Positions 7,426-61,012 of a DNA stretch of 64,000 nt are shown one piece after another. Location of the stretch: contig OY761556.1 of assembly GCA_963664705.1 (NCBI GenBank), forward strand, positions 896,001 through 960,000, given 5' to 3'. This DNA comes from Acidobacteriota bacterium (GTDB taxonomy: Bacteria; Acidobacteriota; UBA6911). The notes under the pieces were generated by a model. That model worked only from the letters and a program-made list of their open reading frames with translations. It did no database searches and was not told where the DNA came from. A program made the translations under genes and the position numbers. Within the stretch, counting starts at the first letter, position 1. The number at the start of each line of letters is the position of its first letter.

Positions 7426-8853
7426 ATGGCGAATCGTCCTTTTTCGATGACGCGCCGGGATTTTCTAGGAGCGTCTGTAAAAATTGCGGCCGCAACCGCG
7501 GTTACCCCTCGGTGTCTCTTTCCCTCAACGCCGCCTGAATCCGTATCGATTGCTTTCCCAAAAGGTTTCTGCTGGGGAACCGCTGCCGGATCCTATCAGG
7601 TCGAAGGGGCCTGGCGTGAGGATGGCAAAGGTGAATCGATATGGGATCGATTTACCCATACTGCAGGTAAGGTTAAAACCGGAGATACTGGGGATGTCGC
7701 GTGCGATCAATACCGGAGGTATCGGGATGATGTGCAATTGATGCGGGACCTCGGTCTCAATAGCTATCGATTCTCCATTTCCTGGCCTCGTATACAGCCT
7801 GACGGCTGCGGCAGTAAAAATGACAGGGGTCTCGATTACTACAAACGTCTGATTGACAATCTCCTCGCTGCGCGCATTCGTCCGGTTCCCGCCCTGTATC
7901 ATTGGGATTTGCCTCAGGCGCTTGAAGACGCGGGCGGCTGGCCCAAGCGAGATACGGCGCAGCGTTTTGCCGATTATGCCGATATCGTGGTGCGCGAACT
8001 GGGAGATCGTCTGCAGAGCTACCTGATCTTCAACGAACCCTGGCTTTTCACCACCCTTGGTTACCTCGTGGGCACCCATGCGCCCGGGCGCTCGGATTTA
8101 TATGATTTCCTATATTCCATCCATACGGTCAGTCTTGCCCAGGGATTGGCCTTCCGCGCCATCAAAGCCGTGCAGCCCTCTGCCATGGTGGGCACTGCAT
8201 TGGGCATGTCCTGGGTGAATACACCGACGGATTGCGCGGCCGACAGGCAGGCGGCCGAGCGGACGCACCTGTCGTTCAATGTCTGGTTCCTGGAGGCGGC
8301 CTACAAGGGCCGCTACCCGGAAGCCATGGTCGGCGTAGCACCGGAAAATTTCGGTGTGCGGGCGGGAGACATGGAGAAGGTTATGGCCCCCCTCGATTTT
8401 GTGGCGCTTGTAAGCTATCCGCCGAGCCGAGTCTCCGCGACTTCCACGCATTCCGCCTCGAATTCCCAAAGCAAGTCGTCCGCAGCAGCGGTCGACAGCT
8501 ATGGTCTGCGCGAAATGATCATGCGCATCACAAAAGACTATAACCGGCCCATCATTGAGGTCACGCAAAGGGGGCACGATTTCGGAGAGACTCCCGATGC
8601 GCAGTGCAGAGTACAGGACAAGATCCGTATCGGCTTTCTCCGCAACCGACTGCTGGATATTTCCTATGCAATCCAGGATGGCGCCGATGTCCGCGGTTAC
8701 TATATTTCAAATCTCACCGACGGCTTTGAATGGGCCGATGGCTATGCAAAACGTTGCGGGCTTGCCCATGTAGACTTTGCCACGCAACGGCGCGTTTTAA
8801 AGGAATCCGGGCGCTGGTATGCAAACCTGGCGCGAACCAACAGCCTGTTGTGA
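7426..8853 (+). CDS. Tat-exported glycoside hydrolase family 1 protein with a degenerate nucleophile motif
   Basis: TRRDFL Tat motif; FCWGTAAGSYQVEG, YRFSISWPRI, LYHWDLP and FNEP are present; the expected TENG reads TQRG. Confidence 0.85.
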   Translation: MANRPFSMTRRDFLGASVKIAAATAVTPRCLFPSTPPESVSIAFPKGFCWGTAAGSYQVEGAWREDGKGESIWDRFTHTAGKVKTGDTGDVACDQYRRYRDDVQLMRDLGLNSYRFSISWPRIQPDGCGSKNDRGLDYYKRLIDNLLAARIRPVPALYHWDLPQALEDAGGWPKRDTAQRFADYADIVVRELGDRLQSYLIFNEPWLFTTLGYLVGTHAPGRSDLYDFLYSIHTVSLAQGLAFRAIKAVQPSAMVGTALGMSWVNTPTDCAADRQAAERTHLSFNVWFLEAAYKGRYPEAMVGVAPENFGVRAGDMEKVMAPLDFVALVSYPPSRVSATSTHSASNSQSKSSAAAVDSYGLREMIMRITKDYNRPIIEVTQRGHDFGETPDAQCRVQDKIRIGFLRNRLLDISYAIQDGADVRGYYISNLTDGFEWADGYAKRCGLAHVDFATQRRVLKESGRWYANLARTNSLL

Positions 8854-8861
8854 ATACGAGC

Positions 8862-9761
8862 CTAGAGACTTAATCCAAGAAGCCGGCAAATATTGCCGTT
8901 GAAAATCTGCGCGGCGTCTTCTGTCGAAAAATGGGCATCGCTCAGCAGTTGTGAAATGAAGGCAATTTCATCCGCATGCCTGAACCACGGCCAGTCGGTT
9001 CCGAAAAGTATCTTCTGCGGACCGTGACGCTCAAGAAGAAATAGGAATTCCTTCCTGTCAAGCGTCCGGGACGCATTGGACGTATCCAGATACAAGTTGT
9101 CTCTCGGGCTCAGGTATTCCTCGATTTCGGCAAACGGGGCTGCAAGTCCACCCATATGCGCCCCGACAAAAGTGATTTCCGGGAAAGCGGCCGCCAGGCT
9201 GCTTAAGCGCCTGGGCGTGGTGATGTATTCCGGAGGAGTTCCGAAAAAAACATCTGCTTTATAGAAGGTATCCAGAAGCACAAAGAAACAAGGCTTTCCG
9301 GACATGTTATGTTTGCGTATCTTTTCGAACAGCCGGATCGTGATCTCAGAATCCAGCCTGAAGCCTTGGGAGAAAGAGGAAAGTTTTAGGGCCCGGATAC
9401 CTGCGCTGCAGAGCCATTCCAATTCCTTCTCAATTTCCGGCCATGCCGGATGAATTGTGCCTGCCGTGAAGAGACTTTGTTCCCCTTCTATGGCAGAGAC
9501 GAACGTCTTGTTGGCCTCATGGACTCCATTGACCGGGGCAATGGGCAAGAGTAGACATGCGTATACGCCAGCCAGGGTGAATTCTTCCTTTAGTTTGGAT
9601 TTGTCCGTGCGCTCAGAAGCCCCCTCCATGTTTAGGCCGAGCGCCGGAGCAAGACCCTCTCTTCGTGAGACGCTGGAAATTATGGATGGTGTATATAGAT
9701 GCGTATGCGCGTCGAAAATCCCAGAAGAGTCGCAGGTCTGGTTTCTTTCCATTTTTGCCAC
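8862..9761 (-). CDS. amidohydrolase family 2 (TIM-barrel metal-dependent hydrolase)
   Basis: DAHTH, AHMGG, LYLDTS and ILFGTDWP motifs. Confidence 0.85.
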   Translation of the reverse strand: MAKMERNQTCDSSGIFDAHTHLYTPSIISSVSRREGLAPALGLNMEGASERTDKSKLKEEFTLAGVYACLLLPIAPVNGVHEANKTFVSAIEGEQSLFTAGTIHPAWPEIEKELEWLCSAGIRALKLSSFSQGFRLDSEITIRLFEKIRKHNMSGKPCFFVLLDTFYKADVFFGTPPEYITTPRRLSSLAAAFPEITFVGAHMGGLAAPFAEIEEYLSPRDNLYLDTSNASRTLDRKEFLFLLERHGPQKILFGTDWPWFRHADEIAFISQLLSDAHFSTEDAAQIFNGNICRLLGLSL

Positions 9762-9977
9762 TCTAAGGGATGATGTCGTGTTTTGCCAGCAATACCTTCA
9801 TGGTCGCATAGAAATGGCGATACCTCCGCTGCCCCGAAGATTGACTTTGCTGATCATTCAGGATACTTTCGGGCCATTTGCACCGAGGCGGCGGTTTTCA
9901 TCCTGTTGTGTCCATGATGGAGAAGGAAGCACTCGGATCATAATCATTTTTGAAAGGGATTTGTTTCGAAGAGCGGT

Positions 9978-11669
9978 TTGTTCAGAACCTTCGTGCGTCC
10001 GCTTATGGTTATACAATCGTCCCGGTGGCGTAAAAGCGCCTGCATTTTGTCTGCGCTCGCGTTTTTTCTGCTTTGCATCAATGCGGCATTGCTTTCCTGG
10101 CTCGGCGGCTACGACGTCCGTTTGGGGAATATGCACATCTCCGCCCACGGATTGTTCAAGCCTCTGCTGATGCTGAATGGAAGCTTTATCCTGATGCTAA
10201 TGGCTTGGGGGAGACTCGGGCGCAGCCTTTGTCCGCGGGATGATGTGCCCTCTATGTCCCTCCGGGATTGGGCGTGGATAGGAAGTGCCATTGTGGCGCT
10301 TGTATCCTCGCTTTACCTGTCTTCCGCGCTAATCAATATAAATCATCCGGACTGGACACACCGCCATATCAGTTCGGGGATTCACTCGCTTAGTGATGCC
10401 TGGCAACTATTCATCGGCAAACAGGCCGATGGATTTTGCCGCCCGCTAACCTTTGTCTCTCTCTGGGTAGACTATCGGATGTTTGGGTCATGGTATCCGG
10501 GGTATCACATCCAGAGCATTGTATTGCACATTCTGAATTCCCTGTTGGTTGTGACTCTTGCCGGAACCATGAGATTTGGGCGAATTCCATCCATGTGGGC
10601 GGGACTGCTTTTTGCCGCGACGTCCGTCGGATTTGAGCCTGTTCTGTGGCCTGCGGCCAGGTTTGATTTATTGGCCGCAGCGTTCACTCTTGCCGCATTT
10701 ATCTTTGCTATCAGGTATTTTCGTGATCCGGCCTTATGGACATGGGAACTGGTGCTGTCCAATGGGTTTTATGCGGCTGGGATTTTGAGCAAAGAAAGCA
10801 GCTATGCGCTCCCTTTCCTAGTGTTGGCGGTTGTGGGCTTCTATCCTGTTTGGTCTTTGCTGCGGCCGAGGTTTTTCAAGTGGCTGGCGTATTTTGCCTG
10901 TTCCACGGTTATTAGTGCGCTTGCCGTGTGTGCCCGGATAGCAATTTATGGAAATCTGGGCGGGTATTCAGGCACGACAAATTGGGCGTCCCCTCATTTT
11001 GTGCCCGGATTCAGGACGATTGGGTCTCTGTTGAGAGTTCTGCCCCTTTCGATTTTGGGTGTCAACACAACTGCTTTTGCGCCGCGCTGGGCGACCATCG
11101 GGCTGATCCTCTTTATCATCTTTCTTGTTGTCGCCGCCCTCATTTGTCGCGGCAATTTTCAGCTTCAAGAGTATTTGCTGGCGGGTTGGACCCTGATTGC
11201 TGCAATCCCGGTTATGAATATTGTCTCCTGGATCGGCTCTTCCATGCAACACAGTCGATACCTATACCTGCCCGCGGTTTTCGCCGCGCTGATGATGGCA
11301 TCTGTTCTCAATCGGGGGCGGTTCTCCAGCCTCTTGCTGACGGGATACCTTCTGCTGAGTGCAGCTGGAGTACTGACCAATATTCAGGGCTATAAGAGGG
11401 CGCTTGCCAGAACCGAAATTATCGCTGAATCGGTGCGTATGGAATGGCTAAGGAATCCAGAAGCGCGCAGGATCTGCATTGTGGGCCTTCCAGAACATGT
11501 CGATGGCGTTTTTTATTTTGGGTCGGAATTGATCGAGAGAGTAAAGGGTAAAGTCCCGCGGGCAGAGATCGTGCGAGTAGAATCCAATCAGGTTGGGACT
11601 GAACCAAAATCCACATCCATTTACAGGTGGAGCCCGGCGAAGCATGACTTGGTTCGTATCGGGTCATAG
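9978..11669 (+). CDS. polytopic membrane protein, GT-C/TMTC-like glycosyltransferase
   Basis: GFCRPL (YRPL-like), YHIQSIVLHILN, EPVLWPAARFDLL, LSKES and RYLYLP motifs. Start uncertain (9978 TTG or 10005 ATG). Confidence 0.65.
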   Translation: MFRTFVRPLMVIQSSRWRKSACILSALAFFLLCINAALLSWLGGYDVRLGNMHISAHGLFKPLLMLNGSFILMLMAWGRLGRSLCPRDDVPSMSLRDWAWIGSAIVALVSSLYLSSALININHPDWTHRHISSGIHSLSDAWQLFIGKQADGFCRPLTFVSLWVDYRMFGSWYPGYHIQSIVLHILNSLLVVTLAGTMRFGRIPSMWAGLLFAATSVGFEPVLWPAARFDLLAAAFTLAAFIFAIRYFRDPALWTWELVLSNGFYAAGILSKESSYALPFLVLAVVGFYPVWSLLRPRFFKWLAYFACSTVISALAVCARIAIYGNLGGYSGTTNWASPHFVPGFRTIGSLLRVLPLSILGVNTTAFAPRWATIGLILFIIFLVVAALICRGNFQLQEYLLAGWTLIAAIPVMNIVSWIGSSMQHSRYLYLPAVFAALMMASVLNRGRFSSLLLTGYLLLSAAGVLTNIQGYKRALARTEIIAESVRMEWLRNPEARRICIVGLPEHVDGVFYFGSELIERVKGKVPRAEIVRVESNQVGTEPKSTSIYRWSPAKHDLVRIGS

Positions 11670-49551: not shown

Positions 49552-50673
49552 TTGGCTCAGATTGAAATTGTCCCAGTGACCAGTGCCGGTGAAATGCGGC
49601 AGTTCATTCGCTTCCCATGGCGCATCTATCGCAACGATCCTTATTGGGTGCCCCCGTTGCTGCTCGACATGAAAAATCTCCTGGACAGGAAGAAGCACCC
49701 GTTTTTTGGCCATTCGTCTGCGGAATTTTTTCTCGCCCGCCGCCAGGGGGAGCCGGTTGGGCGTATTGCAGCTATCCTCAACAACAATCACAACTCGGTT
49801 CACAAGGAACGCACCGGTTTTTTTGGATTTTTCGAATCCATTAATGATGCCGGGGTGGCAACGGCGCTTCTGGAGCGTGCCGGACAATGGGTGCGCGAGC
49901 GCGGAATGGATCGAATGCGCGGACCGATGAACTATTCGACCAATGAGACGGTCGGCCTGCTCATAGAGGGGTTTGATTCACTCCCTTGCATCATGATGCC
50001 GCATAATCCGGCCTATTACGGCGACCTGATCGAGAAATCCGGATTTTCCAAAACAATGGACTTGTATGCATGGTGGCTGTTGACGGAGAAAGGTCTGAGC
50101 CCGAAGATCACCCGTGTAGGGGAAAGAGTTCTGAAAGATCAGGGAATCCGTGTGCGTTGCATCAATATGAAGGATTATTGGGGGGACGTTGCCATCATCA
50201 AACGGATTTATAACGATGCGTGGAGCGACAACTGGGGATTTGTGCCGATGACGGATGAGGAATTCCATCATATGGCCAAAGATCTCAAGATGGTTGTGGA
50301 CCCTCGCGTCGTTCTGATCGCGGAAAAGAACGAAGAACCGGTCGCCTTCTCCCTTGCGCTCCCTGATGTGAATCAGGCTTTGAAAAAGATCAATGGAAGA
50401 CTGTTTCCCTTCGGACTGCCGCGGCTTTTATACCTTACGAGGCACATACAGCAGGTTCGCGTCCTGGCACTGGGGATTTCCAAGAAGGTACAGAATTGCA
50501 ATGGGCTCGGGGCTGCGCTGTATTACGAGTCTTTCCGACGTGGCGTGGAGGCAGGATATCGCAGTTGCGAGTTTTCCTGGACACTCGAGATCAACGACCT
50601 GATCAACCGGAGTATGCAGCTGTTCGGGGCAGAGATCTATAAACGGTACAGGATTTTCGAAAAGCCACTGTAG
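49552..50673 (+). CDS. YghO-like GNAT acyltransferase, bacterial ceramide synthase (bCerS)-like
   Basis: FIRFPWRIY..DPYWVPPL, GRIAA, GFFGFFE, RGPMN, GLLIEGF, MMPHNPAYY, NDAWSDNWGFVP, LPDVN, SWTLE.N and YKRYRIF; TTG start. Confidence 0.75.
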   Translation: MAQIEIVPVTSAGEMRQFIRFPWRIYRNDPYWVPPLLLDMKNLLDRKKHPFFGHSSAEFFLARRQGEPVGRIAAILNNNHNSVHKERTGFFGFFESINDAGVATALLERAGQWVRERGMDRMRGPMNYSTNETVGLLIEGFDSLPCIMMPHNPAYYGDLIEKSGFSKTMDLYAWWLLTEKGLSPKITRVGERVLKDQGIRVRCINMKDYWGDVAIIKRIYNDAWSDNWGFVPMTDEEFHHMAKDLKMVVDPRVVLIAEKNEEPVAFSLALPDVNQALKKINGRLFPFGLPRLLYLTRHIQQVRVLALGISKKVQNCNGLGAALYYESFRRGVEAGYRSCEFSWTLEINDLINRSMQLFGAEIYKRYRIFEKPL

Positions 50674-50696
50674 CGGCGGCGATCCTTGCTCCCGCG

Positions 50697-52238
50697 TTAA
50701 ACTGACGCCTGCTTGCCGCCGAGCTTTGCCAATTCTTCCGCCAGCGCCTGAACAGCGTACCGGATTTCCTCTTCGGTATGGGTTGCGCTGATAAAAAAGC
50801 GCAATCGTGCCGCATCTTCCTCCACGGCGGGATGGACAATAGGCTGAACGTTTATCTTGCGTTCAATCAAGGCCTGGCTTAGCTGCATGCATCGGATGGA
50901 ATTGCCGATGATCGCCGGAATTACCGCAACTCCAACGGCGTGGCCGGTATTGATTCCATGGCTGCGAGCCAGGTCAAGGAAAAGCTTGGATCGGTCTCGA
51001 AGCTGTTCGACCACTTTGGGAAGGCGCTGCATCAGTTCAAGGGCTTTGAGTGCCGCGGCCGCGTTGGGTGGTGCCATCCCTACGGAATACAGGAATCCGG
51101 GTGCCGTAAACTTGAGATAACGGACCAACGGGCTGTTTCCGGCAATGTAGCCTCCACAGCTTGCGAACGATTTGGAAAGAGTACCCATCCAGAGATCGAC
51201 CTCAACCGGGTCCACCCCGGGGAAGTGATGTGCGACGCCTCGCCCTGATGGCCCAAGGACTCCGAGCGAATGCGCCTCGTCGATCAGGAGGTTGCACTGG
51301 AATTTCTTCTTTATTTCAATAAGCCGCGGCAGGTCGCAGATATCTCCATCCATGGAAAAGAGGCCTTCAGAACAGATGAGCGTACGCCGGTATTGGGCGC
51401 GAATCTGTCCCAGGATATGCTCCAGATCCGCTGTGTCCGCATGCTTGAATGGCAGTCGTTTGGCTCCGGAAAGGTAGATGCCCTGGAGAATACTGTCGTG
51501 GCAGAGAGAATCGTGCAGGACCAGGTCGTTCTTATCGTACAGGTGTCCAATGGTGGTTACATTGGTGGCATGCCCGCTTACAAAGACAACCGCATCCTCG
51601 ACGCCAATATGTTGGGCAATTCCTTTTTCAAGATCCCGATGAATTTGTCGTTCGCCGGAAACCGGGCGGCTGGCGGAAACGGAAGTGCCGTATCGGTCGA
51701 TGGCGTCTTTGGCGGCGGCACTCACCTCAGGATGACCGGATAGGCCGAGGTAGTTATAGCTCGAGAAATTCAGCATATCGATTCCATCGATAACGCTGTG
51801 GTTTCTGGCTGTGCCTTCATGAACATGAAAATATGGATTTCTCAATCCGGCCGCTTCAATCTCCAGCAGGCGTTCTCCGATGCTTTTTATCTCCGGGAAC
51901 TTTCTTGTATCCCAAAATTCCGGGTTGGCACCTCCCGGTTGCGGCACCGCTTCGCCTTGAGCTTCAGGCGATTCTTCGGGCAGGCTAAATCCGGACGGAA
52001 GCTTCTTGTGGATCAAATCCAGCAGATCGCGCACATTGCTGAGAGACGCCACTTCTTCATCTGCGATGCGGATCGAAAGGTTTTCCTCGAGCACGCCGAT
52101 CACTTCCATCATGGCTACAGAATCCAGACCCAGTTCAGAAATGGGCGTAGCCGGGCTCAACTGATCGAAGTCCCTCAAATTGACATCGTAAACCGCAGCC
52201 CTGAGCACATTTAGAAGATTTTGATCCGTGCTTTCCAT
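50697..52238 (-). CDS. ACP-fused alpha-oxoamine synthase (serine palmitoyltransferase-like)
   Basis: N-terminal ACP (LGLDSV); NFSSYNYLGL, FSMDGD, DEAHS and GTLSKS (PLP Lys). Confidence 0.85.
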   Translation of the reverse strand: MESTDQNLLNVLRAAVYDVNLRDFDQLSPATPISELGLDSVAMMEVIGVLEENLSIRIADEEVASLSNVRDLLDLIHKKLPSGFSLPEESPEAQGEAVPQPGGANPEFWDTRKFPEIKSIGERLLEIEAAGLRNPYFHVHEGTARNHSVIDGIDMLNFSSYNYLGLSGHPEVSAAAKDAIDRYGTSVSASRPVSGERQIHRDLEKGIAQHIGVEDAVVFVSGHATNVTTIGHLYDKNDLVLHDSLCHDSILQGIYLSGAKRLPFKHADTADLEHILGQIRAQYRRTLICSEGLFSMDGDICDLPRLIEIKKKFQCNLLIDEAHSLGVLGPSGRGVAHHFPGVDPVEVDLWMGTLSKSFASCGGYIAGNSPLVRYLKFTAPGFLYSVGMAPPNAAAALKALELMQRLPKVVEQLRDRSKLFLDLARSHGINTGHAVGVAVIPAIIGNSIRCMQLSQALIERKINVQPIVHPAVEEDAARLRFFISATHTEEEIRYAVQALAEELAKLGGKQASV

Positions 52239-52382
52239 GTTCTCACCTGATTAATGTAATACTGTTGAGGCTGTCCTCAGCCGAAGTCAGGCATCATACC
52301 ATAGGTGCTTCGACGTCTTACAGGAAGACATGCACTTGTTGAGTATGGAGGCGGTTTGGCGGTAGGGAAGGGAGGGTGCAGC

Positions 52383-54104
52383 TTAACCTAGAACAAGGCT
52401 TTCGGCACGCTGGGGCGTAGCGCATTGGTTCGAATTGCCCAGCAGGCCATCTTCGAACAGCGCCTTGGTCCTCCGCCGCTGCAGCTTTCCGCTGGAAGTC
52501 TTGGGAATGGATCCTCGCCCGACCAGGACAACCTTATCCACGGAAAGGCTAAAGGCAGAACGAACCTGGTCACTAACGGCGCGGGCCAATGCCACATTAT
52601 CCTGCATGGTGGTTTCTGCGATGATGATCAGCTTCTCGGTGGATTCCCCATCAACCGAGAATGCCACGACGCTTCCTTTTCGGATTCCGGATATCTCCTC
52701 GACCACCCACTCAATGGCCTGTGGCGGATAGTTGCGTCCATTGATGATAACCAGATCCTTCTGTCTGCCCGAAATATATAGATCCCCGTTCAGGATGAAT
52801 CCGAGATCCCCTGTGTGCAGCCATCCCCCTTTCAGGAGCTGGCTGGAGGCCTCCGGGTTTTGAAAGTAGCCGGGAGTGACGCTGGGGCCCTTGAACACAA
52901 TTTCGCCGACCTTCCCCTCGGGGAGCGATTTGCCCTTCTCATCCAGAATTCTGAGTTCGTGTTCTCTGAAGGTCCGTCCGCAGGAAACGAGTTCAAATCT
53001 CTTCTTGGGATCTCCGTCGTCATCACCATTCAATGGCACCGCAACGTTTTTTGACTCGTACAGATGCCGGTTGAGTACCAGCTTTCGTACGGGGCGGTGC
53101 AAATGATCAAACGCGATCGCAAGCGTCGCCTCGGCCATCCCGTAGCAAGGCATGATGGCGTGCGATTTGAGTCCCCAGGGTTCGAAGGTGGACAGGAATT
53201 TTTCCATTGTCCTGGGATTGATCGGTTCGGCGCCGCATCCCAATACACGCAGGCACGACAGATCCAGTTCCATCCTGGACTTTTTCGGTGCGCGCTTGGT
53301 CGCAAGATCGAATGCGAAGTTGGGGCCGAAGGTAATCGATGCCCGATATTTGTGTACTGTTTCCATCCAAACCGCGGGGTGTTTTACAAATGCAATCGTC
53401 GGAATGAATATCGCCGGTATCTGCGCCACGAGAGTCGAAATGACGAATCCGATCAAACCCATGTCGTGATACAACGGAAGCCAGGAAACCGCCCGGTCAA
53501 AATCCGGCTTTATCTCCAGGGTCTCGATAATTGCATGAGCATTTGCAATGAGGTTGCGGTGCGTTACCACAACGCCGCGCGGAGCCGAGGTGGATCCGGA
53601 GGTGAACTGAAGGAAACATGGATCGTCAGGCTTGATAGTGAATTCCTGCAGAACGATATCCGGGTCGGCATTTCTCAGCCGCTGAACATTCAACAGCTCT
53701 TTTAGTGCAGGCAGACGGGAGAGAAGAGGATCCAGGACAGGGATAAAATCCCCGGTGGTGATCAACGCATTCGCGCCGGAAACACGCAGGATACCGGTCG
53801 CCCGCTCGAGATAGTTGTCCATTCGGCCAAGCGCCAGCGGGGGATAAAGCGGAACGGGCATAAGCCCGGCAACGATGGTGCCCAGGAATGTGAGGACAAA
53901 GTCTTCCGGAGAGTTCAGCACAAGGGCAACACGGTCTCCCTTTGCCAGACCCATCGCCTGGAGAGAAGCTCCGATGCGCTTCGCTTCCTTAAAAACGTCG
54001 GCAAAAGACCAGTCCGTGGGATTCAGGTCGTTATCAAGGAACGTATAGCCTTTGTGCGTTATAGACGAAGCCGCATCGCGGGCATCGGTAAGCGTTCCTA
54101 ACAT
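52383..54104 (-). CDS. fatty acyl-AMP ligase (FAAL)
   Basis: FLQFTSGSTSAPRGV, SWLPLYHDMGLIG, PCYGMAEATL, TGDLGF, GRQKD and PKTSSGKLQR motifs. Confidence 0.9.
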   Translation of the reverse strand: MLGTLTDARDAASSITHKGYTFLDNDLNPTDWSFADVFKEAKRIGASLQAMGLAKGDRVALVLNSPEDFVLTFLGTIVAGLMPVPLYPPLALGRMDNYLERATGILRVSGANALITTGDFIPVLDPLLSRLPALKELLNVQRLRNADPDIVLQEFTIKPDDPCFLQFTSGSTSAPRGVVVTHRNLIANAHAIIETLEIKPDFDRAVSWLPLYHDMGLIGFVISTLVAQIPAIFIPTIAFVKHPAVWMETVHKYRASITFGPNFAFDLATKRAPKKSRMELDLSCLRVLGCGAEPINPRTMEKFLSTFEPWGLKSHAIMPCYGMAEATLAIAFDHLHRPVRKLVLNRHLYESKNVAVPLNGDDDGDPKKRFELVSCGRTFREHELRILDEKGKSLPEGKVGEIVFKGPSVTPGYFQNPEASSQLLKGGWLHTGDLGFILNGDLYISGRQKDLVIINGRNYPPQAIEWVVEEISGIRKGSVVAFSVDGESTEKLIIIAETTMQDNVALARAVSDQVRSAFSLSVDKVVLVGRGSIPKTSSGKLQRRRTKALFEDGLLGNSNQCATPQRAESLVLG

Positions 54105-54333
54105 AAACTCCCCATAAGACCGAAACGCGTCACGTTAACGCTTGATTTCCTAATTATTAGCCATGGGCAAATCGAAAATCCGGCCGCCTCGAGTGCCTGT
54201 GGGCTGCTATCAATAAACATATCCGGATGACGCATCGAACATAGCCTTTTTCTGTCAGACTTGCAATGAGTTTCCGTTATTCGGCCTTCCATTTGTTTGC
54301 ATATCCCAGGATTAGAATTTCGTAATGTAAGGG

Positions 54334-55326
54334 TCACAGCCACCCATGGTTCCGGTACCATTCGACGGTGCTCCGCATGCCGTCTTGCAGGTTGATTTGC
54401 GGACTAAACCCCAGGAGCTTGCGTGCCTTCGTTGTGTTGCATAGCCAGCAGGGGTGCAGGAGTTCCCTTACTTTCTGGCTGCTGACCGTTGAGGGTCGCT
54501 TGGTAATGCCCGCCCACAAATCCCCGGCAAAACCAGCCATCTTGGCAATAAGCGGCGGGAAAGCAATTCTGCGATATGTTTTGGCCAACTCCTGAGCGAT
54601 CGTGCGACCGACTTCATCCCAGGTATATATTTCCTCACGCGAAATAAAGAAGACCTCGCCCGAGGCGATGGATAGCTCTCCGGCAAGGATAAGGGCATCG
54701 GCCAAGTCGTCGACATGGATGAGGCTGAAACGCCGTGTGAAGCGGCCTGGAGTAAAGAGACAGCCCCGCTGAATCATGCGGAAGATCAAAAGTGTTTCAC
54801 GATCGCCGGGTCCATAAACAGCGGAAGGACGCAGAATCGCAACGTGAAAAGCTTTGGCAAAGCGCAGCACCTCTGCCTCGGCCGCCAGTTTACTTTCTCC
54901 GTACCAGGAAATCGGCTTGGGCGGATAGTCTTCGGTGAGGCCCGTTCCATCGGAGCTTGGACCGGCGGCGGCAAGGCTGCTCACGTGAACAAAGCGGCGA
55001 ATACCGGAACTTTCCGAAAGAGCTTCCAGGAGTTGTCGTGTGCCGATCTGGTTGGTTTGGAAAAAGGCATCGCGATTGGCGGCCTTGATGGCTCCGGCAA
55101 CATGATAAACAGTTTCGATCCCCGTTACAGCCTTGCGCATGCCTGCCGCATTTCCCAGATCTGCGAGTTGCAGCCGGATCGGCATTTTTGCGAGCGCGCG
55201 CGTGTCACTCGTGCTGCGCACGAGGCAGGTAACCGCATAGCCCTTTTCAATCAGTTTCCGGACGAGGTTGATTCCGACGAATCCTGTCGCACCTGTAACC
55301 AGCACTGCGGGTTTTATTTCAGTCAT
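54334..55326 (-). CDS. extended SDR / NAD-dependent epimerase-dehydratase (candidate ceramide or 3-keto reductase)
   Basis: VTGATGFVG, SSLAA, YGESK and RPSAVYGPGD motifs. Confidence 0.85.
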   Translation of the reverse strand: MTEIKPAVLVTGATGFVGINLVRKLIEKGYAVTCLVRSTSDTRALAKMPIRLQLADLGNAAGMRKAVTGIETVYHVAGAIKAANRDAFFQTNQIGTRQLLEALSESSGIRRFVHVSSLAAAGPSSDGTGLTEDYPPKPISWYGESKLAAEAEVLRFAKAFHVAILRPSAVYGPGDRETLLIFRMIQRGCLFTPGRFTRRFSLIHVDDLADALILAGELSIASGEVFFISREEIYTWDEVGRTIAQELAKTYRRIAFPPLIAKMAGFAGDLWAGITKRPSTVSSQKVRELLHPCWLCNTTKARKLLGFSPQINLQDGMRSTVEWYRNHGWL

Positions 55327-55438: not shown

Positions 55439-57610
55439 CTAAAGAAGCAATACGGAGAGTAATAAAAGTGGAATCATGAGATAGGAAGTCATTGCCATGC
55501 CGACAAGAGGCGCAAAAAACAGGCTGGCCAGGATCGATCCAAGACAACCCCCGATAAGATCAGCGGCATAAAGGGGGGTAACTGCCGCACGTTGATCGGA
55601 TGCGTCGTGGAAGCCGGCGTAGGCGAAGATTGCGGCCACCAGGATTCCGGTCATGACCAGGAAGGCAAAGCACTGTGAAAGGGAGGCAATGGCTCCCGCC
55701 GCTATTTGCCTGCCCATTACTCCGCTAAGAATGACAAGGCTTCCCAACAGGAGGATGCCGAGAGTCTTGGGCGGATTGAGACTGAGCCTCTCAATGACAT
55801 AGCATCCCAACGCCAAACCGGCCATAAAGCCTGTAAGAAGAAGTCCCAGGTCTTGGAAGAGCACACCGCATTTGGTCTGGAAATATAAAATCAGCACGGT
55901 TTCCAAGGTCATTCCCGAAAAGGCGACAACTCCCATGAGCAGCGCGCGCCGGATTGGCCAGCGAGCCCAGGTCAGCAGCAATGCCGGGATGCTGATAGCC
56001 AGCAGCCAAAGTACTTTGCGGTCAAAACGGACTTCGGGAATGGAGGGATCCCAATACCGGGCGGATGGGAGCAGTTTGGAGAGCCAGATCATGGCGGTGT
56101 ACTGATAGCAAACAGGACGAATATCGGTGTTCATGGGTGCGCGGGAGGATTCAAGCGTTTTCGCGATTTCCTGAAAACGATCATTCGTGAATAGGTATCG
56201 CAGGTAAGGCGGCGATACAATTTTTGTCTTCAATTGCCTTTCGACAAATCTGGATGCCAGGAGCGCCGGATCCCTGGTAAGGGCTCCCATGGAACAGACA
56301 ACGACATTCGTGCTTCCGGGAATAAAAAGGACCTCTGAAAAAGCCGACCGGGCGGCACGGTAGATGCCTGTCATCCTTCGCGTCAATTGCGGACTCCAGA
56401 TGTTCTCGGACGATTGGAGGCTGAAGGCAATTACTCCATTCGGGTTCAGCTTTGCCCGGCACTGCCTGAAGAATTCGCTTGTGTAAAACCGATTGGCCTG
56501 TCCCGAGCTGGGTTCAGGCATGCCGATGAGAATCAAATCATAGGACAGGGCGGCTTCGAGAAACTGGCGGGGATCCGCGACAATGATCCGGACATTGCTT
56601 GCCTGCAGCGATTTTTGAATTTGCGGTGTCTGGTTGGGGGGCACCAAGTCCAACAGCGTTTGATTCAGCTCCACATAATCGACGACTTGGGGAGAGTGCA
56701 TCAAGACCTGGTAAACAGTGCCTTCAATGCCCCCGCCGAGGATAAGCACTCGCCGTGGATTGGAATGCTGGAGCGCCGCCAGATGAACAAATTCCTCCGG
56801 GCGTGTGGATTCCGTATCAAACAGCAGAGCATCATTCTCAAAAACGGAGACCTGCCCATCGAGAAACGTGACCGTGATTCTTGAATACGGGGAATCCTGG
56901 GCATCCACCAGCGTGGGATGGGTCCAGGCTGTCATTTGGCGGTCAAGCGTGGGAGCTTTCCATACCAGAAACATCAATCCGGCAACCAATGCCAGGGCAA
57001 GCGCCCGCATTTTTTCGAGGGAATGCCCGTCGAAATCCAGGAAGGAGCATCCGGCGGCGACCAATGCGCACAGGAGAGCAATAAGAAAATTCTGAAAACC
57101 GAAACGCAGCAGCAAGGTGGCGCTCAAACCGCCGGCAAGCCCGCCAATACTCTCAATGGCGTATGCCGTTGCCAGCGATCTTCCACTGTCAATCGCAACC
57201 CTGGCGCTCCAGCGGAAAAGAAGTCCGAGGAGCAAACCTACCGGAAGAATGGACGCACCGATTGCTGCAATCTGGGTGGGCAGGGGAAGATAGGCTCCAG
57301 GAAGATCGGTCAGCCGTAGCCGAATCGATCGGATAAAGGCGATGTCCAAAGGGAGAATGATGGCGAATAACAGGAAGAACAGGTTTATCAGAAAAATAGA
57401 CGGAGCGGATGACCGCGAGCGCCGGAGCAAGGTGCCGCATGCGGTTGAAAGCATCCATATCCCTAGTGCCAGTGTATAGACCAGTTCAATTCCATAAGAG
57501 GCCACGCTCAATTCGCGCAGCAGCACAACCTGCCCCAATATAGACAGGAATCCCACCCCCAGGAGATATCCAATGCTGGAGTCGGATCGACGCAATCCTT
57601 GCATAATCAT
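55439..57610 (-). CDS. polytopic membrane protein with an internal spermidine-synthase-like SAM-binding domain
   Basis: N- and C-terminal TM blocks (LGQVVLLRE, YAIESIGG, YAADLIGG) around DSPYSRI, EEFVH, VLILGGG, YVELN and NRFYTSEFF. Start uncertain. Confidence 0.8.
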   Translation of the reverse strand: MIMQGLRRSDSSIGYLLGVGFLSILGQVVLLRELSVASYGIELVYTLALGIWMLSTACGTLLRRSRSSAPSIFLINLFFLLFAIILPLDIAFIRSIRLRLTDLPGAYLPLPTQIAAIGASILPVGLLLGLLFRWSARVAIDSGRSLATAYAIESIGGLAGGLSATLLLRFGFQNFLIALLCALVAAGCSFLDFDGHSLEKMRALALALVAGLMFLVWKAPTLDRQMTAWTHPTLVDAQDSPYSRITVTFLDGQVSVFENDALLFDTESTRPEEFVHLAALQHSNPRRVLILGGGIEGTVYQVLMHSPQVVDYVELNQTLLDLVPPNQTPQIQKSLQASNVRIIVADPRQFLEAALSYDLILIGMPEPSSGQANRFYTSEFFRQCRAKLNPNGVIAFSLQSSENIWSPQLTRRMTGIYRAARSAFSEVLFIPGSTNVVVCSMGALTRDPALLASRFVERQLKTKIVSPPYLRYLFTNDRFQEIAKTLESSRAPMNTDIRPVCYQYTAMIWLSKLLPSARYWDPSIPEVRFDRKVLWLLAISIPALLLTWARWPIRRALLMGVVAFSGMTLETVLILYFQTKCGVLFQDLGLLLTGFMAGLALGCYVIERLSLNPPKTLGILLLGSLVILSGVMGRQIAAGAIASLSQCFAFLVMTGILVAAIFAYAGFHDASDQRAAVTPLYAADLIGGCLGSILASLFFAPLVGMAMTSYLMIPLLLLSVLLL

Positions 57611-57714
57611 GGGGTCAACTGGTTTCCTATGGTTGCGCCAAAAAGCCCAAATATGCGGCAAAATCGCGCCTTATGGGTCTGTTTTTCCATTTCCACTCAC
57701 TACTATTGAATCTA

Positions 57715-59274
57715 TTATTTTTCTCCCGGTCCGCCACCGGCGAATTGCGATTCGCTGAAGACGTCTGCCTGAAAGATCTGGAATTCGGCGCCCTGTTTCC
57801 AACAGCCGGATGTGATGCCTGCCTTTCTGCAGAGATTGTCGAGCATCTCTGTCCGGCTCCACTTATTTTCGGTTGCCACCTGCGGCAGGAAGACGGCGGA
57901 GCGTCCTGCCTTGGACAGCAGCACGCCATCGCGGCCTACGACGATTTCACTGACAGAGGCTATGGGCTGCATCGGCGTGAGCACAGAAATTTCAATCTCC
58001 AGGTTCTTGAGTTCACTCCATTCCACGGGAGTGAATCTGGGATCACTGAATGCCGATTGCAGCGACATCATGCCGACGGTTTTGCTCAGTTCGGTATTGC
58101 TGGCCATTAGCCCGATGCATCCCCGCAATTCTCCTTTTTTGCGCAGCGTTACGAAAGCTCCCTGCCGCACTTTCAACCTGGCGGGGAAATCAACGGTTGG
58201 CTGCGGGGCCTGGGGGGATAGGTGGTGAAGGATGGTTGCCCTCGAGAGAGACAGAAGCATCTTCTTTTCGGCGGGCTGAAGCGGCGTTGTGCCCGAAAGC
58301 CCGGGGATTTCGCGATCCAGTGCCTGGGCCGACGCTGCGCCCGAATCCAGTACAACAGCTCCGTACCCTACAATACGGGACCGATCTCCGCCGGGCGTAT
58401 CTCCTGAGTTCGCATAACTCGCCACAAAAGCGCGCCTGGCTCCAAGGCTTTTGGCCGCAGTTATTCCGGCAATAATGGCCGCTTCTCCACACGCCCTTGT
58501 TGCAAGATTGGGCACATCCAGTTCTTTCATCGTGGAGGCAAATCGGACCGTGTCGAGGGATGCGATGGCGTCCAGCGTCTGGTGGTCTGTTTTGGATGCA
58601 TTTTCATAGGATGGATAGTGGGACAGGTCGGAGCTGATCACGATCAATGCGCGACGATTCTTCAGTACTTTGCCCAACGCTTTTCCAAACCGGACGCACA
58701 TATCGTAATCGGGCGGATGAATGATGGCCGGCACAACAAGGGCTTTGGGGAAGAGTACCTGGATAAACGGAAGCTGTACCTCGATGGAATGCTCGGCAAT
58801 ATGGACCTGTCGGCTCTGAACGCAATCCTTGCATTCAGATAGCAGCGCGGCGGTGAGATTGGTGTCAACGGGAATTTCGCCCAGAGGCGTGCGCAGAGCG
58901 CCGTAATTGCCGAGGGAAACGCCCCTAAAATCCCCGGTTGTATGATTCACGCCAAGAATGACGATGGTGTCATAATTGACTCCCATCGCCTGTCGATAAC
59001 CATTCGCGCAAATTTGCCCGGAGTAAACATACCCGGCATGGGGGACAAGGATGGCGATAGGATTGCCGGCATTTCCCGTGGCGGAGCGCTTTAGGTATGC
59101 TTCGATGGCAGATCTCAGTTTTTCCGGGTCCGAGGGATAAAACTGGCCTGCAACTGCCGGAGGGCGGACATCGGTTTCCGCGGCGGATCCGATTTGGACT
59201 CCACAGAGAAGCAATACCATGGTTGCCGGAAGCATTTTCCAGCGGATATGCAAAACCGGAGAGATAAATCTCAT
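57715..59274 (-). CDS. amrB: AmmeMemoRadiSam system protein B (MEMO1)-protein A (AMMECR1) fusion with an N-terminal signal peptide
   Basis: RPPAVAGQFYP, PHAGYVYSG, EHSIEVQLPF, SSDLSHY and ACG; then GAFVTL..LRGCIG, DPRF and FLPQVA. Confidence 0.9.
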   Translation of the reverse strand: MRFISPVLHIRWKMLPATMVLLLCGVQIGSAAETDVRPPAVAGQFYPSDPEKLRSAIEAYLKRSATGNAGNPIAILVPHAGYVYSGQICANGYRQAMGVNYDTIVILGVNHTTGDFRGVSLGNYGALRTPLGEIPVDTNLTAALLSECKDCVQSRQVHIAEHSIEVQLPFIQVLFPKALVVPAIIHPPDYDMCVRFGKALGKVLKNRRALIVISSDLSHYPSYENASKTDHQTLDAIASLDTVRFASTMKELDVPNLATRACGEAAIIAGITAAKSLGARRAFVASYANSGDTPGGDRSRIVGYGAVVLDSGAASAQALDREIPGLSGTTPLQPAEKKMLLSLSRATILHHLSPQAPQPTVDFPARLKVRQGAFVTLRKKGELRGCIGLMASNTELSKTVGMMSLQSAFSDPRFTPVEWSELKNLEIEISVLTPMQPIASVSEIVVGRDGVLLSKAGRSAVFLPQVATENKWSRTEMLDNLCRKAGITSGCWKQGAEFQIFQADVFSESQFAGGGPGEK

Positions 59275-59316: not shown

Positions 59317-60510
59317 CTACGCCCAGACTCCCGCGATTTCTTTCCCGCAGTATTTGCAGGTGCCTCGGTTCATATGGATGCCTGCTATGAAGATGGAACT
59401 TCGTTCGATGACGACCTTCCCGCATCTCGGGCAGTAGGTTTGATTCCCGGGATGGTTGGGGACATTCCCGACATAGGCGTAATGAATCCCCTTTTCCATT
59501 GCATAGTTCCTGAAGCGCTCCAACGTTGCGATGGGAGTCGGCGGCAGGTTCAGCAGCTGGTAGTCGGGATGAAAGCGCGTGAAATGGATCGGAACATCCG
59601 GGCCGATTTCGCCCATGATCCAATCCACGAGTCCCTGCAGCATTTTTTTTGAGTCATTCAACGTCGGGACAACGAGATTTACGATCTCGAGATGAATGCC
59701 GCTTCTGGCAATCTGGCGGATGCTGTTGAGAACGGGCTGAAGCTCGGCGCTGCAGACTCTCCTGTAGAAATCCGGGCTGAAACCTTTCAGATCGATTTTG
59801 ATGGCATCCAGAACGCGGCACAGCTCAGACAGCGGTTCCGTGTTCATGAATCCGCAGCTGACCATGACGCATCGCAATTTCCTTTTCCTTGCAAGTTCGG
59901 CGGTGTCGGCCAGATATTCGATAAACACTGTAGGTTCATTGTAGGTAAAAGCAATTACCGGGGATTGTTTGGATTCCGCAGTACTGACCAGTTCGGCCGG
60001 CTGCACAAAAGGAACGCTGAAGTCCTCCGGTCGTGATTGAGAGATCTCCCAGTTCTGACAGAATTTGCAATGCAGGGGGCATCCGGAGGTGGCGAATGAG
60101 AACGCCTCCGATCCCGGAAGAAAATGGTAGAAGGGCTTTTTCTCAATGGGATCCACATGGATGGCAACGGGCCTTCCGTAGACCAGGCTGCGCAGCTCGC
60201 CGTCAACATTCATCCGCGCCCGGCATTTCCCCCGATCTCCGCTTTTCAATATGCAGCCCTGGGCGCACAGAAGACACTTGATGAAAGCAGGCTTGCCCGT
60301 ATGCGCCGCCGCCCGGAGGTATGTTTGCTGTCCGTGACAGACAGAACAGGCGGTTCCAGTTGAGGTCGAGGCCCAGTAGCGGGCTTTCGGAGCCATCCGT
60401 GCCAGGTCGGAAGTGCGGTCGAAGAACGACGGGTAGGCAAAAGCCAGACCTGCTCCAACAGTGGAGCCAAGGCCGGCCGCTGAAATGAGGAATTTGCGTC
60501 GGGAGATCAT
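59317..60510 (-). CDS. amrS: AmmeMemoRadiSam system radical SAM enzyme with a Tat signal
   Basis: SRRKFL plus hydrophobic stretch; DPIEKKPFYHFLPG, GCPLHCKFCQNWEISQ, FTYNEP, HFTRFHPDY, YVGNV and TYCPRCG. Confidence 0.92.
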   Translation of the reverse strand: MISRRKFLISAAGLGSTVGAGLAFAYPSFFDRTSDLARMAPKARYWASTSTGTACSVCHGQQTYLRAAAHTGKPAFIKCLLCAQGCILKSGDRGKCRARMNVDGELRSLVYGRPVAIHVDPIEKKPFYHFLPGSEAFSFATSGCPLHCKFCQNWEISQSRPEDFSVPFVQPAELVSTAESKQSPVIAFTYNEPTVFIEYLADTAELARKRKLRCVMVSCGFMNTEPLSELCRVLDAIKIDLKGFSPDFYRRVCSAELQPVLNSIRQIARSGIHLEIVNLVVPTLNDSKKMLQGLVDWIMGEIGPDVPIHFTRFHPDYQLLNLPPTPIATLERFRNYAMEKGIHYAYVGNVPNHPGNQTYCPRCGKVVIERSSIFIAGIHMNRGTCKYCGKEIAGVWA

Positions 60511-60760: not shown

Positions 60761-61012
60761 ATGAGTGATGAAGATATCAAAGCGGAACTCGAGAGATTGC
60801 GGGCGGAAAATGAAGCTCTCAAACGGTCTTCTTCCAAAGGACTGTCTTTGAGAGTAAGCGAAAAGGGCGCTGTTTCGGTATATGGACTCGGACGGTTTCC
60901 TGTCACGCTCTATAAGGAACAATGGCTTCGACTTCTGGATATGTCGGAAGATATCCGGATGTTCATCAATCAGAATGAAGCGCAGCTTAAATCCAAGGCC
61001 GCGCAGTCTTAA
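60761..61012 (+). CDS. small conserved hypothetical protein
   Basis: Coiled-coil N-terminus, then VSEKGAVSVYGLGRFPVTLYKEQW; GGAGG upstream. Confidence 0.8.
   Translation: MSDEDIKAELERLRAENEALKRSSSKGLSLRVSEKGAVSVYGLGRFPVTLYKEQWLRLLDMSEDIRMFINQNEAQLKSKAAQS

Follow-up and report, generated by a model that had tools for sequence, protein, structure and literature searches.

The window, that is, the whole stretch of 64,000 nucleotides from an Acidobacteriota bacterium analysed here, carries on its reverse strand a triad of genes: amrS, which encodes the radical SAM enzyme of the AmmeMemoRadiSam system, a gene for a Memo-AMMECR1 (AmrB-AmrA) fusion and one for a polytopic membrane protein (Table 1). 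The ORF of the first of these scores 366.2 bits in profile searches against TIGR04337, for which the cut-off is 220, and its product also matches PF04055, which places it in the AmrS family. The gene after it matches both TIGR04336 and TIGR04335 above cut-off, i.e., the Memo and AMMECR1 companions of AmrS are present, and a hydrophobic stretch spans residues 14–32 of its product. The N-terminus of AmrS itself, MISRRKFL, combines a twin-arginine motif with a hydrophobic stretch and reads as a predicted Tat signal; the Tat motif recurs in 113 of the 120 best homologues, the 7 misses being proteins with truncated starts.

Between ARYW and the N-terminal CxxC cluster of this protein, the original prediction had placed a CSVCH motif and a later His, and both are confirmed there, at C55–H59 and His70. 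The spacing from RY[W/Y] to the CxxC cluster is 33 residues in this AmrS as against ~10 in insert-less relatives. The four Cys of the cluster (C79/C82/C86/C96) are invariant in the insert-bearing, other Tat and cytoplasmic AmrS groups alike, and in the C-terminal ribbon the residue following CxxC is usually Gly, not His. The host genome also encodes a signal-less AmrS paralogue (L002), which lacks the insert.

Table 1. Features of the amrS locus, with their positions in the window and the evidence for each
Feature	Position	Strand	Evidence
amrS: radical SAM enzyme of the AmmeMemoRadiSam system (397 aa; exported subfamily, haem-c-type insert)	59317..60510	-	TIGR04337, PF04055
Tat signal peptide (predicted), ~residues 1-25, cleavage site inferred	60436..60510	-	S-R-R-K-F-L
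Insert, ~residues 47-75, in hairpin between ARYW and N-terminal Cys cluster	60286..60372	-	absent from 60 middle-tier and 20 low-tier AmrS
CxxCH (CSVCH, C55/C58/H59): predicted attachment site for covalent haem c, with its proximal ligand	60334..60348	-	invariant in 119/119 covering homologues
His70 (AAAH): predicted distal haem ligand	60301..60303	-	loop His in 168/168 distinct inserts
N-terminal four-Cys site C79/C82/C86/C96, predicted metal site	60223..60276	-	common to all AmrS
Radical SAM CxxxCxxC (C144/C148/C151)	60058..60081	-	invariant
C-terminal CxxC...CxxC ribbon C360/C363/C385/C388, predicted Zn-ribbon type	59347..59433	-	kept in all groups
amrB-amrA: Memo-AMMECR1 fusion, signal-peptide-like N-terminus	57715..59274	-	TIGR04336 252 bits, TIGR04335 168 bits
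Polytopic membrane protein, spermidine-synthase-like domain, 740 aa, third triad gene	55439..57661	-	PF01564; NF002956 below cut-off

The core of the enzyme, its radical SAM motif, both four-Cys sites and the partner genes are those of the AmrS family (TIGR04337, with AmrB TIGR04336 and AmrA TIGR04335). Compared to an ordinary AmrS, what has been added here is the Tat signal, the CxxCH-His insert, the signal-bearing AmrB-AmrA fusion and the membrane spermidine-synthase-like third gene, along with barrel changes of the exported group, e.g., K238 replacing Asn and V277 replacing Thr. Judged from its sequence, the exported AmrS with a haem-c-type insert is a new form of a known but uncharacterised family, in which the insert is real and conserved. 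Further invariant core changes (P145, C219, M222 and H273) are the window's clade's own and are kept by its insert-less members; H273 is common to that clade and its sister lineage. Membership in the radical SAM superfamily is indicated by the invariant CxxxCxxC and by the modelled partial barrel, which is like that of the PFL-activating enzyme: Foldseek gives E 1e-14 against this enzyme (PDB 3c8f, 3cb8), and the barrel is closest to 3c8f (Z 23.9, rmsd 2.2, 225 aligned). The PFL-activating enzyme, which is cytoplasmic and fed by flavodoxin, differs in having neither an N-terminal Cys domain nor a haem motif, at 16–18% identity. Inteins interrupt the radical SAM CxxxCxxC of AmrS in P0287–P0289, P0179 and P0215.

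Among the loci listed, the order amrS, Memo-AMMECR1 fusion, membrane protein is the same in L006–L008 and in most of L136–L155; in L147 the third gene was not seen. Downstream of the triad in the window (49552–55326) lie a NAD-dependent epimerase-like gene, a fatty acyl-AMP ligase, an ACP/serine-palmitoyltransferase-like fusion and a facing GNAT gene, an order that is repeated in L006 and not in the other loci examined. Divergent from amrS, on the forward strand (60761–61012), is an 83-aa ORF with an N-terminal coiled-coil-like stretch and no family above cut-off. In L217, an exported amrS-amrBA pair is followed (8846–11184) by two more genes for radical SAM proteins, of which one is AmrS-like and the other includes ferredoxin domains. 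Neither a lyase nor a redox gene was seen beside the window's amrS, and no conserved cytochrome or redox partner was seen beside the clade loci L136–L155 in the output listed.

Conservation and descent of the insert

The original prediction was staked on the presence of the motif in close orthologues, and there it is found: 119 of the 120 best homologues (66–85% identity, query included) have CxxCH, and the sole miss is N-terminally truncated. Across these proteins C55, C58 and H59 are invariant, whereas the surrounding loop residues vary. When the inserts of all sets are pooled (168 distinct inserts, drawn from 175 sequences), a later His lies ~9–16 residues downstream in every one of the 168, making available a sixth ligand, the ligation of which is predicted; the same inserts hold no further Cys, a Met in 6 cases, and extra His amounting to 1.1% of loop residues. 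In host ORFs outside multihaem proteins, only 65 of 1568 CxxC sites are followed by His, and this rarity, taken with the conservation of CxxCH, indicates that the motif is not a product of chance.

The search of the host's own phylum covered 301 genomes, of which 189 matched, and returned 290 matches, 110 of which were examined; the unpublished genome G023 is counted only in this tally. In the top tier the insert occurs in 29 of 29 loci, 28 with a Tat motif and the other truncated, while in the middle tier it is absent from all 60 AmrS (one of the 61 loci was misread by the script), with a strict Tat match in 40 of the 61. The comparison of Tat-bearing with cytoplasmic AmrS, which had been put forward as a check, came out in favour of the motif: CxxCH is kept in the insert-bearing AmrS, and the insert is present in none of the 20 signal-less AmrS of the low tier. 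Among the 128 of 150 representative rows listed, an N-terminal insert is seen in P0121, P0162 and P0165 and in no other, and each of the three has RR. A scan of the genome collection yielded 3 loci. In a second phylum, 10 of 401 genomes hold a clade member, 7 with the insert and 3 without it.

In trees built on the AmrS core with the insert left out, carriers form one clade (FastTree), and IQ-TREE, run on 35 of the 169 rows with midpoint rooting only and the signal-less AmrS on the far side, supports the window's clade at 100/100 and the grouping of that clade with its sister lineage at 97/95. The insert thus marks one clade within the exported AmrS group in these reconstructions. Three insert-less clade members are nested among the carriers, and since a carriers-only grouping is rejected (AU p=4e-6), they are best seen as losses; P0129 is a probable further loss, in FastTree only. 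Our reading of this pattern is that the insert was gained once, after export had arisen. The idea that it was lost where maturation is missing found no support: two of the three genomes concerned, G475 and G381, encode ResB/CcsA, and only G611 is without CcmE/ResB matches, yet it keeps two PF01578 matches. No substitute redox gene was seen beside the three loss members in the loci listed.

A probable haem c site and its predicted maturation

The flanks of the motif were compared with those of known kinds of CxxC site. A classifier that ignored the position of the His was trained with the 304 motifs of 32 multihaem ORFs in the host as positives and 895 further CxxC sites as negatives. It reached a cross-validated AUC of 0.91 and called 97% of the 131 insert motifs haem-like, as against 29% for the N-terminal cluster and 0–6% for the other three CxxC (radical SAM and C-terminal) of the same proteins; once the positions mainly flagging ferredoxins were removed, the AUC was 0.83 and the corresponding values 94%, 45% and 0–3%. 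All of this is supporting rather than decisive, given that the motifs are related to one another and that unverified ORFs are among the negatives. An AlphaFold2 model places a short helix over the CxxC, with the insert at pLDDT ~70 against >95 in the core. The model of the N-terminal 75-residue domain (pLDDT 78) found no fold match above Z 2.5, an outcome that shows neither a new fold nor the absence of a haem fold, the loop perhaps being too small to score. A sequence search of solved structures gave no match, and an ESM Atlas search with residues 47–78 gave no usable one.

What reads as the strongest clue to a haem c on the AmrS insert comes from the genes upstream of amrS in the sister lineage. 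Here, as read from the longer homologues P0287–P0289, the insert has the variant form CxxCH-x(10-11)-C-H-x-x-H. A metagenome scan with this insert region yielded 80 loci of 270 confirmed stretches, one cluster member being named Anaerolineaceae; CxxCH is seen in 73 of the 76 parsed loci, and 72 of these 73 have the third Cys-His. The genes immediately upstream of amrS, in the same orientation, are resB and ccsA, i.e., the System II haem lyase: by profile, both are present in 26 of the 30 loci whose upstream DNA extends to 3 kb (kin loci, which reduce to 24 at 90%, 13 at 80% and 2 at 70% identity), ccsA is present in 45 of the 51 loci with 1 kb, and at least a piece of the pair in 63 of the 80. 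Every ORF tested matches its family (11/11 PF05140 and 9/9 PF01578, 20/20 together), the WxWDPKE signature is kept in CcsA, and the gap between ccsA and amrS is <100 bp in 19 of 26 loci. No other cytochrome candidate was found in the 26 lyase-linked loci, where the sole other CxxCH ORFs encode a thioredoxin-like WCGPCH protein and a CPNCH protein with no evident signal. In two of the lyase-linked loci, L165 and L168, a ccmF gene is also found nearby, which makes the resB-ccsA pair look additional. The 4 of 30 loci that lack the pair keep CxxCH, and, with profiles built from the sister lineage, no lyase gene was detected beside the window's amrS or in the 20 clade loci L136–L155. In L224 the insert has the third Cys and no later His, which hints at a Cys as the distal haem ligand in the sister lineage.

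A parallel might be struck with Wolinella, for which dedicated System II lyases, CcsA1 for CX15CH and NrfI for CXXCK, are described as being encoded, as in the sister lineage, beside their clients (PMC6976685, PMC3601427). The client in the present case differs in that it is a radical SAM enzyme and has a single CxxCH of the canonical kind; in the window's clade, both the third Cys and an adjacent lyase are lacking. The spacing from the first to the third Cys amounts to CX15CH in 66 of 73 sister-lineage inserts, an overlap that may be due to chance.

The host itself encodes ccmE, ccmF, ccmC and ccmA/B-like genes along with two tatC, and no match to ResB was found in its genome; a 269-aa PF01578 match, which lies beside a hemA-like gene and for which no ResB partner was found, was not counted as System II. 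Over 80 of the 84 candidate own-phylum genomes, CcmE occurs in 27 of 28 other insert-bearing genomes (17 of the 28 from one family) versus 23 of 52 insert-less ones; the sole carrier lacking it is a genome that is 86% complete and has a further PF01578 match. Counted by family, CcmE is found in 8 of 8 carriers versus 15 of 31 others (Fisher p=0.012, the families being kin). A CcmE or ResB match is also present in 50 of the 52 insert-less genomes, so co-occurrence at the level of genomes is a weak test. A link specific to System I was dropped, as the carriers of the second phylum have ResB (7/7) and no CcmE match. In one carrier genome (G302:C15:87870-90015), resB and ccsA are matched as fragments interrupted by in-frame stops, which reflects either assembly error or decay.

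The original prediction had carried the caveat that c-type haems are normally attached to Sec-exported, unfolded chains. Both bacterial lyase systems are described as acting on short CxxCH peptides (PMC3601427; PMC8112865), with System I haemylating peptides of 12 residues (PMC3601427) and CcsBA requiring only the thiols and the His (PMC8112865), which makes an exposed CxxCH loop on a folded, exported AmrS a plausible client of a haem lyase. The caveat is softened by this activity at the level of peptides and by a Tat precedent: the split-Soret dihaem cytochrome c, a c-type cytochrome, appears among the predicted Tat substrates (PMC3623810, Table 1; PMC4429474). It is otherwise an unrelated protein, with two haems and no radical SAM domain. 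The title of a 2003 paper by Abreu reportedly names a second iron centre in it. Outside the window, the host genome encodes another protein with a Tat motif, in which a CxxCH lies close to the C-terminus (G000:C1:4677272-4678234, reverse strand); its N-terminus is presumably hydrogenase small subunit-like.

Taken together, the conservation of the four needed residues, the haem-like flanks, the restriction of the insert to Tat-bearing AmrS and the lyase pair upstream in the sister lineage argue, if indirectly, that the CSVCH loop is probably a covalent haem c site.

Electron supply, competing readings and meaning

Several insert-less exported AmrS bear redox modules of other kinds. N-terminal FMN-binding and NapH-type Fer4_5 domains are fused to AmrS in P0131, P0139, P0143, P0295–P0301 and P0304; in P0122 and P0127 an FMN-binding domain is joined to it with no predicted helix between them; and P0124 and P0133 have an N-terminal DsbD_2. 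Flavinylated modules of the NapH-like kind have been described as extracytosolic conduits of electrons that work with varied enzymes (PMC8238504). The FMN-binding/NapH-type fusions suggest that exported AmrS repeatedly need a supply of electrons, a need that in this clade would be met by haem.

Other architectures were also encountered. In P0322, P0305 and P0308 a membrane spermidine-synthase-like protein, a NapH-type Fer4_5 segment and AmrS form single chains, and in P0322 an internal twin-arginine motif directly precedes the AmrS enzyme, resembling the dual Sec/Tat membrane proteins that have been described (PMC5449189). In P0130, P0132, P0134, P0144, P0291, P0293, P0131 and P0139, AmrS follows a Sec-type signal or the last membrane helix with no RR; if such enzymes lie outside, their Fe-S cluster would need to be assembled after export.

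The reading preferred here, to which we assign a probability of roughly 0.55, is that a covalent haem site is carried by a folded, Tat-exported radical SAM enzyme and that the haem serves as a one-electron entry outside the cytoplasm. The latter role, electron input to a radical SAM enzyme, had been part of the original prediction and is slightly favoured by the present analysis: it fits the fusions seen in the relatives, and it sits less well with the loss of the insert in favour of no visible substitute and with most Tat AmrS having no visible haem insert or flavin/NapH-type module. Radical SAM chemistry is taken to require SAM from the cytoplasm together with flavodoxin or ferredoxin. Haems with bis-His ligation are usually weaker reductants than the clusters of radical SAM enzymes, so that transfer from haem to cluster may be uphill. 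The fuller picture, in which AmrS is itself a c-type cytochrome, haemylated after folded export and wired to periplasmic cytochromes, with flavinylated or NapH-type modules taking this place in sister lineages, stands at even odds.

The course of events under the preferred reading can be laid out as follows. The Tat motif, the radical SAM motif and the conserved CxxCH and His are read directly from the sequence. AmrS would fold and load its Fe-S cluster in the cytoplasm, with the loop of ~25 residues exposed and still haem-free, and after export the haem would be attached to the loop by the host's Ccm (by ResB/CcsA in other lineages), with C55 and C58 forming the thioethers and H59 and H70 as the predicted axial ligands. 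In what is the weakest step, periplasmic cytochromes would reduce the loop haem, from which an electron would pass to the [4Fe-4S]-SAM centre, perhaps via the adjacent four-Cys site. The substrate would be handled jointly with the Memo-AMMECR1 fusion, likewise exported, and with the spermidine-synthase-like protein of the membrane.

A covalent haem c might instead be present in a role other than electron entry, e.g., as a redox or gas sensor, as a scavenger of oxygen near the cluster or as an acceptor of surplus electrons. Every line of evidence for haem c applies equally to such an accessory haem, which also accommodates the absence of the insert from most Tat AmrS and its disappearance with nothing visible in its stead; a bis-His haem would, moreover, be better at accepting electrons than at reducing a radical SAM cluster. 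However, two conserved His would give a closed, six-coordinate haem, usually of the electron-transfer type rather than a gas sensor, and other exported AmrS bear electron-transfer modules fused at the same N-terminal position. On this balance an accessory role is rather unlikely.

As for the metal, the original prediction had named haem or zinc, and of these the haem has gained from the conservation, the flanks, the Tat restriction and the sister-lineage lyases, leaving zinc the weaker alternative. The two Cys and two His at C55, C58, H59 and H70 are a complete Zn ligand set that could form a structural knuckle around Zn or another non-haem metal, AmrS has two other four-Cys sites, and the third Cys-His of 72 of the 73 sister-lineage inserts could be read as part of a Cys-rich metal site. 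Against this, adjacent Cys and His both on one Zn would be unusual; CxxC is usually followed by Gly in the AmrS ribbons but by His in all inserts; the flanks score as haem-like; and Zn needs no export, yet no signal-less AmrS examined had the insert. A zinc site would also leave the upstream resB-ccsA unexplained and is hard to reconcile with lyase genes that travel with a gene bearing the target motif of a lyase. A non-haem metal is therefore quite improbable.

That the loop holds no cofactor at all, being a disulfide or a decaying relic, or that the twin-arginine segment anchors AmrS on the cytoplasmic side, beyond the reach of a lyase, is very improbable: the insert has been lost repeatedly, no extracytoplasmic radical SAM enzyme was met with in the literature searched and the supply of SAM there is unexplained, but a disulfide needs neither the invariant His59 nor the conserved later His, the partner gene products have export-type N-termini, and P0122 and P0127 link AmrS to an FMN-binding domain without a predicted helix between the two. 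That the tethered haem is a substrate or product of the radical chemistry, supplied by ResB/CcsA, is barely credible, for although the lyase pair is tightly linked to amrS in the sister lineage, and HemW, ChuW/HutW and AhbD/NirJ do combine the radical SAM fold with haem (cytoplasmic enzymes for which haem is cargo or substrate and not CxxCH-bound), the insert-bearing, insert-less and loss variants have the same clade-wide core residues and partner genes, so that the reaction seems independent of the loop.

Our search of the literature found no account of an exported or cytochrome-type radical SAM enzyme or AmrS, most subscription journals and bioRxiv supplements being outside its reach, and family curators may have remarked on AmrS signal peptides. 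If the preferred reading of a haem-bearing, exported AmrS is true, radical SAM chemistry would extend to the cell envelope, with one way of powering it there, and nature would offer a further example of a haem being attached to a protein that had folded before its export. Natural controls are at hand in the insert-less clade members and in the lineage that brings its own lyase, and the uncharacterised AmmeMemoRadiSam system, which includes the homologues of human MEMO1 and AMMECR1, would gain a coloured, assayable handle.
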